Position numbers and translations under genes: made by a program. Of a stretch of 64,000 nucleotides of DNA, positions 38,070 through 55,263 are shown in pieces. The notes beneath the pieces are model-generated. The model was not told where the DNA came from and did no database searches. It was given only the letters and a program-made list of their open reading frames with translations. This DNA comes from a virus. Every line of letters begins with the position of its first letter. The first letter of the stretch is position 1. The DNA is taken from the IMG/VR virus record IMGVR_UViG_3300007513_001104; one strand, written 5' to 3'.

Positions 38070-38867
38070 CTATAATTTGTCTAACCAAGGAATAATTACT
38101 TCTTGGGCAAATAACTTTTGATATTTTTTTGGTGGATGATCTGGGATTTGTGTCTCGAATCCTTTCTCTTTACAAAAATCAAGTAGAGTAGATGAATACC
38201 AAGTAAAAGGATTTATTTGAGATTCTAATAATTTTGAAGTCTCGTATGTTATATTAAACAAACTATGATCCCACGCTTTAAAATTAAACAAAGGAATTTC
38301 TTTTATCTCACATAACCATTGAACACTTAATATATTTTCTATTGTTTTTAAATATTGTGCCTCTTCATTATGAAAGTTTTTAAGAAACAATCTCATTTTC
38401 CAATCTATATGATCGTCGCCAAACTCCCATAGGCCATAATTTCCACCACTTTTTAACCAAGAAGAATTTTCTCCTGGAAGGCCGTTATGCATTGGGTTAA
38501 GATAATCAGTTCCATCTAGCTGTTTTGTTTTAGGTACGACATAGTTGCTAAAAGATCCTGAGTGTTTGCCTCCGTTATCCCATTTATCGGGGTCTGGATT
38601 ATATTTTTTATAAAGACTCTCATATAAAAAAGGATCATCATCTTTATGAAAATACAGTTCAAATCTATTAGGATCAGACCAACCAACAACAACCGCGTCT
38701 GGTGACCGTCTGTATATAGCATTTATTGCGTTCCTAGCAATCATAGAATTGCATGCTGCCATTTCAGAAGACCTAATTACTTCATAGTCTTCTAAATAAT
38801 ATGGCCATGATGTCTTTGGGCCTGGAGCCATAGCAGAAAAACTATCACCACCTGCTAAGACGTGCAT
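38070..38867 (-). CDS. SGNH/GDSL-like protein
   Basis: GGDSFS near the N-terminus; WS...R; DHP near the C-terminus. Confidence 0.6.
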   Translation of the reverse strand: MHVLAGGDSFSAMAPGPKTSWPYYLEDYEVIRSSEMAACNSMIARNAINAIYRRSPDAVVVGWSDPNRFELYFHKDDDPFLYESLYKKYNPDPDKWDNGGKHSGSFSNYVVPKTKQLDGTDYLNPMHNGLPGENSSWLKSGGNYGLWEFGDDHIDWKMRLFLKNFHNEEAQYLKTIENILSVQWLCEIKEIPLFNFKAWDHSLFNITYETSKLLESQINPFTWYSSTLLDFCKEKGFETQIPDHPPKKYQKLFAQEVIIPWLDKL

Positions 38868-40282
38868 ACTTTTACTCCATACTTTCTTTCAAAGGCTTGG
38901 CCGTCGCTTTTAGTATTAACAATTGGTTTACCTTTTATATTAAGGCTCGTATTAAGTAACATAGGACATCCTGTTTCAAAATAAAATTCGTTAAGCAAGC
39001 TATATAATCCTAAATGTTGCTTTTTGTTTACTGTTTGAACTCTTGAAGTGCCATCATAATGAACTATGGCAGGATATTTCTCAGGTTCTTTGCACTTAAC
39101 CGTGTATTGCATAAAGGGCGCTTCTTTAACAGGCATGTGGAAATACTTATCTGCGTGTTCTTCCATTATAACCGGTGCGAAAGGTCTAAACTCTTGTCGT
39201 CTTTTAATTTTGTTTACTTTATCTTTTATATCTTTGCCACGAGGATCTGCTAATAAGCTTCTATTACCCAATGCCCTGGGGCCAAATTCTGCTCTTCCAT
39301 TAGCAACACCTACTATATTGCCTTTGAGTAGTTCACTTAATACTGGCCACACAGGATACATACCTTCTATATTATATCCTAAATAAGGTGTAAAATCTAC
39401 GTGCTCTTGTGTGTGAGCTAATACTGCTCCTAATGAAGAGCCTGCATCTCCAGGGTTAGGCATTATCCATACATTATCATAATACTCTAATGCAATAGTA
39501 TTTGCTACACAATTTAATGCACATCCTCCTTGCAAGACCAAGTTGTTTGTATAGTCCCACTTTTTAGATATCTCTAATATTTTCCTAAACTCTTCTTCGT
39601 ATATTTTTTGTGCTGCTGCTGCAAAATCAAAATATAGTGTTTTGTGTGGGTCGTCTATATGTTGCATAAATGATCTGCAACCACGTTGTAAATTTTGTTG
39701 TAACAACGGTTTCATATCATTATAAAATCTATCTGGATCTCCATAAGCTGCCATGCCCATTAAAATATACTCGTCCTCATTTGCTTTTAATTCACATCTA
39801 TCTGTAATAGCAGAATAAAACATACCTAAGGAAGTAGGATAACGTGTACTCCACCGTTTACCTAATGCGCCACTCCATATACTTGAAGTTGTCCACTCTC
39901 CAATGGCATCTATTACAATAACACTTCCATTAATAAAAGGACTTGTAAACATACCAGCTGCTGCGTGTGATTTGTGATGTGTTGTATATTTTACTGTCCA
40001 ATAATCTAAACCATAAGACCTAAGTAATTTTTTAACGTTATTCTTTTGCCATGGAAGTCCACTATATAAACGCCTCGTATTTTTCCAAAAAGGACTTTCA
40101 TGCCAGTACAATGTTTCAGGTTCTCCGTACTGCATGGCATCTTGTACTAGAGCTTTATTTAAATTTTTATCATTTTTAATACCACTGTAACGTTCGGCAT
40201 GTCCTGCAAATAAAATTTTATTATCTTCAAACACAGATATAGCTGCGTCATGATGTCCTGCTGATATACCCCATCTAATCAT
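38855..40282 (-). CDS. Carbamoyltransferase (NodU/CmcH family); start probably MIRWG at 40282
   Basis: HDAA; HHKSHAA; DAIGE; MGMAAYG; GGCALN; GDAG; EFGPRALGNRS; RPFAP; LNTSLN. Confidence 0.95.
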   Translation of the reverse strand: MIRWGISAGHHDAAISVFEDNKILFAGHAERYSGIKNDKNLNKALVQDAMQYGEPETLYWHESPFWKNTRRLYSGLPWQKNNVKKLLRSYGLDYWTVKYTTHHKSHAAAGMFTSPFINGSVIVIDAIGEWTTSSIWSGALGKRWSTRYPTSLGMFYSAITDRCELKANEDEYILMGMAAYGDPDRFYNDMKPLLQQNLQRGCRSFMQHIDDPHKTLYFDFAAAAQKIYEEEFRKILEISKKWDYTNNLVLQGGCALNCVANTIALEYYDNVWIMPNPGDAGSSLGAVLAHTQEHVDFTPYLGYNIEGMYPVWPVLSELLKGNIVGVANGRAEFGPRALGNRSLLADPRGKDIKDKVNKIKRRQEFRPFAPVIMEEHADKYFHMPVKEAPFMQYTVKCKEPEKYPAIVHYDGTSRVQTVNKKQHLGLYSLLNEFYFETGCPMLLNTSLNIKGKPIVNTKSDGQAFERKYGVKVCTS

Positions 40283-55133: not shown

Positions 55134-55162
55134 TACGTCTAATTTCGTTCCTTATATAGAAG

Positions 55163-55263
55163 TATTTATAGTGGAATCAAAAGTGTTTTAACATCTCTCT
55201 CATAGAGATTTATAATAGTTTGTTGCTTCTTTTGCTTCTTTTGGTATTAAATTTTTATAAATA
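55163..55263. promoter_or_regulatory. Divergent late promoters: TATAAATA on - at 55163-55170 and on + at 55256-55263
   Basis: Two exact consensus sites in the gap between the enzyme operon and the exported-protein operon. Confidence 0.8.

Follow-up and report, generated by a model that had tools for sequence, protein, structure and literature searches.

What a phage would make with six radical S-adenosylmethionine (rSAM) enzymes encoded almost side by side, in the company of a glycosyltransferase-like (GT-like) protein and a carbamoyltransferase, is the question raised by a 17-gene operon on the minus strand of IMG/VR record IMGVR_UViG_3300007513_001104. The stretch of 64,000 nucleotides analysed here, referred to as the window, stems from a distant T4-like marine myovirus and encodes a gp48-type baseplate tail-tube cap, a gp32-type single-stranded DNA-binding protein (SSB) and a gp59-type helicase loader as well as DNA ligase, exonuclease and tail lysozyme domains. 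The operon is a virus-encoded unit for glycan or natural-product tailoring that is built on an unstudied rSAM family, and it is widespread rather than unique. An earlier note on this DNA had described a phage-encoded multi-enzyme tailoring unit with an enzyme mix typical of glycan or natural-product pathways and without a matching characterised pathway, and this description was borne out. The system is not special to this phage: the cassette recurs in many phage lineages.

The six rSAM proteins (encoded by g07-g09 and g12-g14; Table 1) were found to be intact members of the NCBIfam family NF033640 (N_Twi_rSAM, twitch domain-containing radical SAM protein), which they matched over the full model with 292-375 bits at a curated cut-off of 170 bits. 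The earlier count of six paralogues therefore stands, and their placement with profile models, a check that had been proposed with it, led in all six cases to a family without a characterised member. In the alignment of the six paralogues, C9, C28, C69 and C72 of the N-terminal domain, the motif C123xxxC127xxC130 and the motif GGEP are invariant; C123, C127, C130 and GGEP are also invariant among 25 orthologues of g14. Two subtypes can be told apart by the residues after the second Cys, which read Cys-His-His in g07 and g08 and Cys-Cys in the other four. The Pfam SPASM model matched residues 5-94, ahead of the Radical_SAM match, in g09, g12, g13 and g14. A C-terminal SPASM domain with seven Cys and two auxiliary clusters was not found in the six proteins, the four invariant Cys (five in the g14 group) all being N-terminal. 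With four invariant N-terminal Cys, an auxiliary cluster would probably be fully ligated; by analogy with BtrN-type enzymes, it may serve as electron relay. In the AF2 model of g14 (pLDDT 86), 215-228 residues aligned to rSAM barrels with Z scores of 11-11.7. CteB, BlsE, anSME and SkfB were tied as top matches (Z 11.6-11.7); MoaA, viperin, DesII and AprD4 came next. The rSAM profile gave zero matches among PDB sequences.

In a tree of 119 family members, g07, g08, g09, g12, g13 and g14 defined six clades. Divergent viral contigs, among them complete phage genomes of 347 kb and 608 kb, have roughly one copy of each clade per locus. Thus, six retained and non-redundant functions are indicated. 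The gene-neighbourhood comparison that the earlier note had called for showed that the six orthogroups recur as a set, in similar order and with the same partners, both in jumbo phages of 350-600 kb and in further T4-like phages of marine origin. The best-conserved orthogroup is that of g08, with 43-52% identity to the jumbo-phage copies. As recurring partners, a carbamoyltransferase (15 of 22 viral loci), the GT-B-like family of g15 (cassette family 3), which is interleaved with the rSAM genes, and SGNH/DUF6071-like proteins were observed. A nucleoside diphosphate (NDP)-sugar 6-dehydrogenase gene lies inside the cassettes of L020-L022, ends those of L118 and L119, and is inside or at the end of that of L087. 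When ten families co-occurring with the cassette in jumbo phages were compared with Pfam, only DUF6071/GDSL and two sub-threshold matches were obtained.

The N_Twi rSAM family as a whole is very large and strongly phage-enriched. Since the six-paralogue alignment is too diverse for a genome scan, the alignment of g14 orthologues was used instead. The family comprises 6,140 clusters at 50% identity (E <= 1e-30), and for one cassette protein the index of the metagenome collection lists 315 blocks. Phage genomes carry 5 to 17 copies above the cut-off each: about 17 in a complete genome of 347 kb, about nine in one of 608 kb and five in the 170-kb relative. The cultured Vibrio phages K566 and K567 have four full-length members in one cluster, and KVP40 has two matching places in tblastn searches. 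Cellular members are mostly single-copy (Bacteroidota, Bdellovibrionota, Alphaproteobacteria and a Synechococcus), the single-copy bacterial homologues branch beside the g14 clade, and none of 14 control cell genomes exceeded the NF033640 cut-off.

Two side observations concern the family itself. First, the complete jumbo genome G003 (the IMG/VR record of locus L006; 346,856 bp with terminal repeats) carries its approximately 17 N_Twi rSAM genes at 139-151 kb, 192 kb, 249-294 kb and 318-341 kb, one of them with an in-frame TAG. Second, tandem rSAM-rSAM fusions of 790-1400 aa are common in the family (representatives P0263-P0285; L041 3444-6764) and account for most of its long forms, which suggests that neighbouring paralogues act as physical pairs. 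The N-terminal extensions of the longer members P0074 and P0115 had no relatives in the PDB.

The operon comprises 17 minus-strand open reading frames (ORFs) running from 55133 down to 38070. All gene junctions overlap or abut (gaps of 0 to -35 nt) when the start at the g15/g16 junction is reassigned. The apparent overlap of 104 nt at this junction arises because the longest ORF of g16 uses a TTG start; with the likely ATG at 40282 the overlap shrinks to 8 nt, and the protein then starts like other carbamoyltransferases. A T4-type late promoter motif, TATAAATA, precedes g01, and a second copy in opposite orientation faces the divergent operon on the plus strand (Table 1). The octamer is not over-represented in the window (15 copies found, 11 +/- 3.3 expected). 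Twelve of the 15 copies lie at most 130 nt upstream of a gene start on the same strand, a placement for which 6% of positions qualify (binomial P ~1e-12). The divergent pair is kept in the intergenic regions of 11 of 12 relatives, including the more distant L115/L116 lineage. Because no internal copy was found within the operon and the next one lies at 38060-38067, directly past g17, the operon is bracketed by two late-type motifs. The layout of overlapping or abutting genes behind an exact late promoter was thus confirmed as described before, and the placement and conservation of the motif support its reading as a late-type promoter. By analogy with T4 biology, we infer late expression of the operon. 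The motif was also observed 73 nt upstream of the gp32-type SSB gene (29703-30611, minus strand), at 30685-30692 inside the preceding gene; late promoter use is known for T4 gene 32, and this copy fits. The G+C content is 0.32-0.33 between 40 and 52 kb and 0.365 in the flanks.

Comparison with relatives revealed that the operon is composite, consisting of a conserved five-gene head (g01-g04 and g06) and a flexible cassette with the six rSAM genes, the tandem GT-B-like gene, two SGNH/DUF6071-like genes and the NodU-type carbamoyltransferase gene. In relatives with 83-94% identity (L001-L004, L103, L104 and L107), the whole order is kept, while g11 and g17, and in some also g10, are lacking; such presence and absence shows that the operon has recently gained or lost genes. 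Relatives with 57-75% identity (L105-L113) have retained the head (g01-g02-g03-g04-g06) and, as tail genes, dn_100, dn_104 and ligase. Between them, one relative has four rSAM genes and no GT or carbamoyltransferase gene, others have duplicated genes of the g07 or g14 type, and one has a single rSAM gene with GT-like genes. Since head and tail are constant and the gene sets between them differ, the middle is a flexible cassette. Among close relatives, the number of rSAM genes ranges from 1 to 7, so that the earlier idea of a single indivisible 17-gene pathway had to be abandoned.

The partners of the rSAM genes were assigned with differing certainty. The two paralogous halves of g15 are recognisable by an internal repeat (E 1e-11) and occur as separate genes in L020; the protein matched the profile of cassette family 3 with 187 bits. 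The model of its C half is moderate (pLDDT 67), and the top 50 Foldseek matches to it were all GT-B proteins, with probability up to 1.0 (VldE, OtsA, SdgB, BshA, FucT and T4 beta-glucosyltransferase (BGT) among them). In the VIA comparison, the C half matched T4 BGT with Z 11.6 (296 of 333 residues), fucosyltransferases with 9.4-10.1, a GtfC-type enzyme with 9.4 and T4 alpha-glucosyltransferase (AGT) with 9.1. In the g15 family, an invariant Arg occurs together with a Glu-Lys pair, which may resemble the GT10 donor-binding motif. Searches of g15 against Pfam, NCBIfam and PHROG and of the GT-like profile against PDB sequences returned nothing, and 57 of 57 homologues lack Pfam domains.

The carbamoyltransferase g16 was identified directly by Carbam_trans_N (E 2e-34, 119.8 bits, cut-off 24), Carbam_trans_C (E 4e-54, 183 bits, cut-off 27) and the PHROG 1601 family 'Nol-like carbamoyltransferase' (E 9e-99). 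With 139 bits to the NodU equivalog model, for which the cut-off is 1000, it is a family member and not a NodU orthologue. The SGNH-like g05 and g17 had no direct Pfam match and were linked to cassette family 5, which matches DUF6071 (E 1e-10) and Lipase_GDSL_2 (E 2e-4, below cut-off). In g17, which is lacking in L001-L004, an N-terminal GDS motif is readable. No Pfam family of an initiating phosphoglycosyltransferase, a flippase or exporter, or a polymerase or ligase (Wzx/Wzy) was found among the 17 products. Thus, the gene identities given in the earlier note stand on direct family matches for the rSAM proteins, the carbamoyltransferase, the desaturase, the Asp/Asn beta-hydroxylase (AspH)-like protein, the GNAT protein and the ABC ATPase, and on remote ones for the GT-like, methyltransferase-like and SGNH-like proteins. 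Family searches gave no assignment for g01 and g11, which remain the two hypothetical proteins.

Table 1. Features of the rSAM operon and its surroundings. Coordinates refer to the window unless another locus is given.
Feature	Coordinates	Strand	Evidence or remark
TATAAATA, T4-type late promoter motif of the operon	55163..55170	-	29 nt before g01
g01, 101 aa, N-terminal hydrophobic (transmembrane) segment, no family	54828..55133	-	67-88% identity in L103-L113
g02, membrane fatty-acid desaturase-like, three His boxes, delta-9 type	54091..54831	-	Pfam FA_desaturase E 1.6e-16
g03, Asp/Asn beta-hydroxylase-like cupin oxygenase	53448..54113	-	Pfam Asp_Arg_Hydrox E 5.6e-7, 30 bits (cut-off 22.6)
g04, GNAT-like acyltransferase, weak	52879..53463	-	Pfam Acetyltransf_1 E 2e-4, 22.0 bits (cut-off 20.7)
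g05, SGNH/DUF6071-like	52268..52888	-	31.8 bits to cassette family 5 profile; closest relatives only
g06, class I methyltransferase-like Rossmann protein	51694..52278	-	PDB profile match; conserved in all relatives
g07, N_Twi rSAM, 'CHH' subtype, own orthogroup and tree clade	50314..51693	-	NF033640 E 8e-87, 291.8 bits
g08, N_Twi rSAM, 'CHH' subtype, own orthogroup, acidic C-terminal tail	48804..50321	-	NF033640 E 1e-87, 295.0 bits
g09, N_Twi rSAM, own orthogroup	47630..48814	-	NF033640 E 2e-87, 294.1 bits
g10, 143-aa ABC-type P-loop ATPase remnant	47218..47649	-	Pfam ABC_tran E 3e-7
g11, 182-aa hypothetical, window-specific	46673..47221	-	no family
g12, N_Twi rSAM, own orthogroup	45381..46676	-	NF033640 E 6e-94, 315.4 bits
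g13, N_Twi rSAM, own orthogroup	44171..45415	-	NF033640 E 4e-103, 345.7 bits
g14, N_Twi rSAM, own orthogroup	42919..44184	-	NF033640 E 4e-112, 375.4 bits
g15, 883-aa fusion of two paralogous GT-B-like halves	40275..42926	-	internal repeat, fold model, family 3 profile
g16, NodU/CmcH-type carbamoyltransferase	38855..40282 (likely ATG; longest ORF to 40378)	-	Pfam and PHROG 1601
g17, SGNH/DUF6071-like, window-specific insertion	38070..38867	-	47 bits to cassette family 5 profile
Divergent late operon, possible partner or target: Asn/Thr-rich exported protein, acidic exported protein, two transmembrane coiled-coil proteins	55336..60732	+	TATAAATA at 55256-55263
NAD synthetase, NDP-sugar 6-dehydrogenase and RfaE-II-like nucleotidyltransferase-cupin fusion	60795..63550 (or to 63858)	-	nearby sugar-nucleotide genes
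NAD-related neighbour 1: NAD synthetase	60795-61556		window
NAD-related neighbour 2: NMN-adenylyltransferase-like gene	L020 7144-7494		within cassette
NAD-related neighbour 3: nicotinamide phosphoribosyltransferase	L120 17045-18604		beside Vibrio phage K566 cluster

The reading favoured here, to which we give about an even chance of being right, is that a nucleotide sugar or glycan is edited and decorated stepwise by radical chemistry and transferred late, in the cytoplasm, to a protein. The core genes (g05, g07-g09 and g12-g17) would be the local version of the widespread phage cassette. Its six N-terminal-twitch rSAM enzymes would work one after another on a sugar, with a nucleotide-activated hexuronic acid, or a glycan derived from it, as the most likely substrate. 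Each enzyme would use a SAM-bound [4Fe-4S] cluster to form a 5'-deoxyadenosyl radical, the Cys-ligated N-terminal cluster serving as electron relay, and the resulting chemistry at unactivated sugar carbons could be oxidation, epimerisation, dehydration, decarboxylation or C-C chemistry. Transfer of the sugar or sugars would fall to the tandem GT-B-like g15, addition or removal of O-acyl groups to the two SGNH-like proteins, and O-carbamoylation of a hydroxyl to the NodU-type g16. Late in infection, the product would be joined in the cytoplasm to a protein; candidate acceptors are a virion protein and the Asn/Thr-rich exported protein, which is co-regulated. Substrate class, step order, the chemistry of each rSAM enzyme and the target are the conjectural parts of this scheme.

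This sugar-editing scheme is preferred because six orthogroups are co-retained, the recognisable partners are all sugar enzymes, the cassette is strain-variable and no lipid-linked export machinery accompanies it; the lack of Wzx, Wzy and initiating-transferase families in the operon fits direct cytoplasmic transfer better than a lipid-linked route. The variation of the cassette between close relatives is reminiscent of surface-glycan loci. In addition, the structural neighbours of g14 include rSAM enzymes with sugars or sugar nucleosides as substrates (BlsE with Z 11.7, tied at the top, DesII with 9.4 and AprD4 with 7.8). Several points weigh against it. The fold of g14 matches generic rSAM barrels and is tied with the peptide-modifying anSME, SkfB and CteB. 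The GT-like assignment lacks a Pfam or PDB sequence match and depends on a model of moderate quality, no sugar aminotransferase, dehydratase or nucleotidyltransferase is encoded inside the operon, and most of the conserved partners in jumbo-phage cassettes belong to no family. We know of no N_Twi rSAM family member with a known substrate or reaction. Moreover, a shared operon in T4-like phages is weak evidence for a shared function. A doubtful extension of the scheme is an assembly line in which the six orthogroups turn a common nucleotide hexuronic acid into a heavily rearranged, O-carbamoylated and O-acylated sugar, which the phage would join in the cytoplasm to its own secreted, mucin-like Asn/Thr-repeat protein. 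If true, an epimerised, deoxygenated, branched or carbon-extended sugar would represent a new class, and infected cells or lysis debris would acquire a glycoprotein coat made by the phage, with a structure that differs between phage strains as the cassette does.

The genes transcribed away from the operon head bear on the question of the target. The first of them (55336-56883, plus strand) encodes a protein of 515 aa with a Sec signal peptide, an Asn/Thr-rich low-complexity tract of about 280 residues and a C-terminal domain that is conserved and contains Cys. Behind it (56859-60732, plus strand) lie genes for an acidic exported protein of 1029 aa and the two coiled-coil proteins. None of the four proteins belongs to a meaningful Pfam family, and an identity with curli CsgF/CsgG, the genes of which have been described for pelagimyophages, was rejected. 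In L103-L113 and in the abundant L115-L117 lineage with genomes of 150-163 kb, the head of the enzyme operon always stands head-to-head with this operon, and both divergently oriented TATAAATA motifs persist. The Asn/Thr repeat tract itself is variable between relatives.

This pairing speaks for the possibility that the rSAM, AspH-like, methyltransferase-like and GNAT proteins modify the Asn/Thr-rich protein directly before export, by epimerisation, beta-hydroxylation, methylation or cross-links in the manner of proteusins. Peptide-modifying rSAM enzymes are indeed among the top structural neighbours of g14, and AspH-like and methyltransferase-like genes lie nearby in the same operon. Against such protein tailoring, the jumbo-phage rSAM cassettes lack an N/T/S-rich protein within 10 kb, and the Asn/Thr protein is constant in relatives whose rSAM genes number from 1 to 7. 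A small-ORF precursor peptide would find no intergenic space in the operon; the sole candidate substrate, the 515-aa protein, carries a Sec signal peptide and not a leader of the kind found in ribosomally synthesized and post-translationally modified peptides (RiPPs). General family scans of the six rSAM proteins detected only SPASM and Radical_SAM, with no search aimed at an RRE/PqqD-like domain, and the g14 model ends in a C-terminal part that is purely helical and without conserved Cys. The GT-like, carbamoyltransferase and NDP-sugar dehydrogenase partners would also be left unexplained. Direct protein tailoring is therefore considered rather unlikely. The Asn/Thr-rich exported protein is a candidate target in this lineage and, since the jumbo-phage cassettes lack such a protein nearby, not a general one.

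The head genes lead to another explanation, in which the product is a free or lipid-bound small molecule (aminoglycoside- or nucleoside-like, a glycolipid or an envelope glycan) that remodels the surface of the infected cell, for example for superinfection exclusion. The desaturase, the AspH-like protein (LpxO/OlsC-like) and the GNAT-like protein, which stand as a trio at the operon head, would act on an acyl part. NodU/TobZ-type carbamoyltransferases commonly act on oligosaccharides or aminoglycoside small molecules, and RfaE-II-like and heptose-epimerase-like genes are present elsewhere in the window. Host-surface modification has been proposed for lipopolysaccharide-like genes of pelagimyophages (PMC7029224). 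The operon lacks a flippase, a polymerase, a ligase and a membrane-domain exporter; its sole ABC-like gene, g10, is a remnant that is present in L001 and missing in L002/L003, and a P-loop protein of 145 aa occupies the equivalent place in L020-L022. Late timing would leave exclusion little time to matter, and the head trio is not part of the jumbo-phage cassettes. For these reasons, a small-molecule product is judged improbable. The head genes (g01-g04 and g06) form a separate, lineage-conserved module that may prepare the acceptor or alter lipids. Orthologues of g04 were found in L020 and L103-L113, and the methyltransferase-like assignment of g06 is based on the match of its family profile A4 to 3dtn, a putative methyltransferase in the PDB (E 2.8e-4), aligned across motifs I-IV.

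Long co-directional late transcripts are common in T4-like genomes, and the operon could represent one that carries unrelated auxiliary genes rather than a single pathway. In line with this, head and cassette differ in their phyletic patterns, g10, g11 and g17 come and go (no homologue of g11 was detected in any fetched locus), and the single-copy bacterial rSAM homologues share no context, their neighbours being a two-component system, YaaA, proline racemases, LiaF and a GT2. This is countered by the recurrence of six orthogroups and their partner families in similar order across very distant phages and by the overlaps that couple the genes translationally throughout. For the head, a mere co-transcription of unrelated genes is plausible; for the cassette it is unlikely, and as an account of the whole operon we consider it quite unlikely.

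Hypermodification of DNA, in which g15 would glycosylate a modified phage base as the T4 alpha- and beta-glucosyltransferases do, with the rSAM enzymes, SGNH-like proteins and carbamoyltransferase editing the DNA-linked sugar, would suit a T4-like genome and the VIA comparison, in which T4 BGT (Z 11.6) ranked first for the g15 C half, and is nevertheless very unlikely: the lead of BGT, a minimal GT-B fold, over fucosyltransferases is only 1.5 Z, T4 DNA glucosyltransferases are early/middle proteins in contrast to the late promoter found here, and PF00303 (thymidylate-synthase/dCMP-hydroxymethylase family) had no match in the 99%-complete 170-kb relative G001 with the same operon head, so that the T-even hydroxymethyl-pyrimidine route is missing in this relative, which is not the window's own genome.

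The wider surroundings of the operon contain further sugar-nucleotide genes. The NDP-sugar 6-dehydrogenase encoded about 6 kb upstream of the operon is 61% identical to the in-cassette orthologue of L020, and the cupin part of the neighbouring RfaE-II-like fusion is of the mannose-6-phosphate-isomerase type. The plus-strand four-gene operon, which separates this group from the rSAM operon, resembles an insertion. At a distance from the operon, in the midst of replication genes, a gene of the nucleotide-sugar epimerase/dehydratase family (32134-33033, minus strand; best weak match ADP-heptose 6-epimerase) and a 2-oxoglutarate-Fe(II) oxygenase gene (27714-28448, minus strand) were observed. NAD-related genes adjoin N_Twi rSAM clusters in three separate lineages (Table 1), which may reflect chance clustering of auxiliary genes or supply for an NAD-dependent sugar dehydrogenase.

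The close relatives of the window are uncultured marine viral contigs, and no close cultured phage was found. Its structural proteins are 30-37% identical to those of Pseudomonas phage pf16, Pelagibacter phage HTVC008M and vibriophages. Megablast of the 17-kb operon against 50,697 phage records returned zero matches, and tblastn with the rSAM proteins detected in these records only copies with 21-25% identity in KVP40-like vibriophages and Ralstonia phage RsoM2USA.

Searches of the literature for the family name, for phage rSAM with carbamoyltransferase and for jumbo phage with rSAM yielded no functional study. For marine T4-like phages, two papers remark on the large number of rSAM genes with no function assigned; one of them (PMC5332604) counts 12 radical SAM genes in an environmental T4-like genome of 183 kb, within a discussion of Fe-S metabolism. 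Abundant T4-like phages of the ocean and jumbo phages devote 10-20 kb to the cassette. Identification of its product would define new radical chemistry on a sugar (or a protein), would show what a phage gains from a costly, oxygen-sensitive and iron-demanding pathway in iron-poor surface water, and would explain a strain-variable island of marine phage genomes.

Compared with known systems, the operon shares features with several and coincides with none. In the proteusin (polytheonamide) RiPP pathway, several rSAM enzymes, an Fe/2-oxoglutarate hydroxylase and a methyltransferase act on an Asn-rich core. The likeness lies in several rSAM genes with hydroxylase and methyltransferase-like genes beside an Asn-rich protein, whereas the window lacks a leader of the nitrile-hydratase or Nif11 type and a B12 domain, and its rSAM set varies independently of the Asn/Thr protein. 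With NodU, NolO, CmcH and TobZ, g16 shares both Pfam domains as a member of the family. According to the models, the two-Rossmann GT-B fold of T4 BGT and of GT10-type alpha-1,3-fucosyltransferases would be common to the g15 C half and cassette family 3. Unlike these enzymes, g15 is a tandem fusion of two halves and has no sequence-level family match. Glycosylation of the chlorovirus capsid, the mimivirus fibril and mycobacteriophage virions likewise relies on virus-own genes for making and transferring sugars that are expressed with morphogenesis. The enzymes employed there are classical GT families and sugar-nucleotide enzymes; to our knowledge, none of those systems uses an rSAM array like that of the window. 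The likeness proposed to BtrN, NeoN, AprD4, DesII and BlsE, which have a twitch domain or lack one, is that a radical would abstract H from a sugar carbon while an auxiliary cluster relays electrons. In contrast to these sugar-acting enzymes, the auxiliary domain lies at the opposite end of the window proteins, the identity is 6-16%, and peptide-modifying rSAM enzymes score equally. The same N-terminal four-Cys domain ahead of the CxxxCxxC barrel as in the six window proteins is found in NF033640, so far a catalogue family without a characterised member, of which six diverged orthogroups in two subtypes are here used together.

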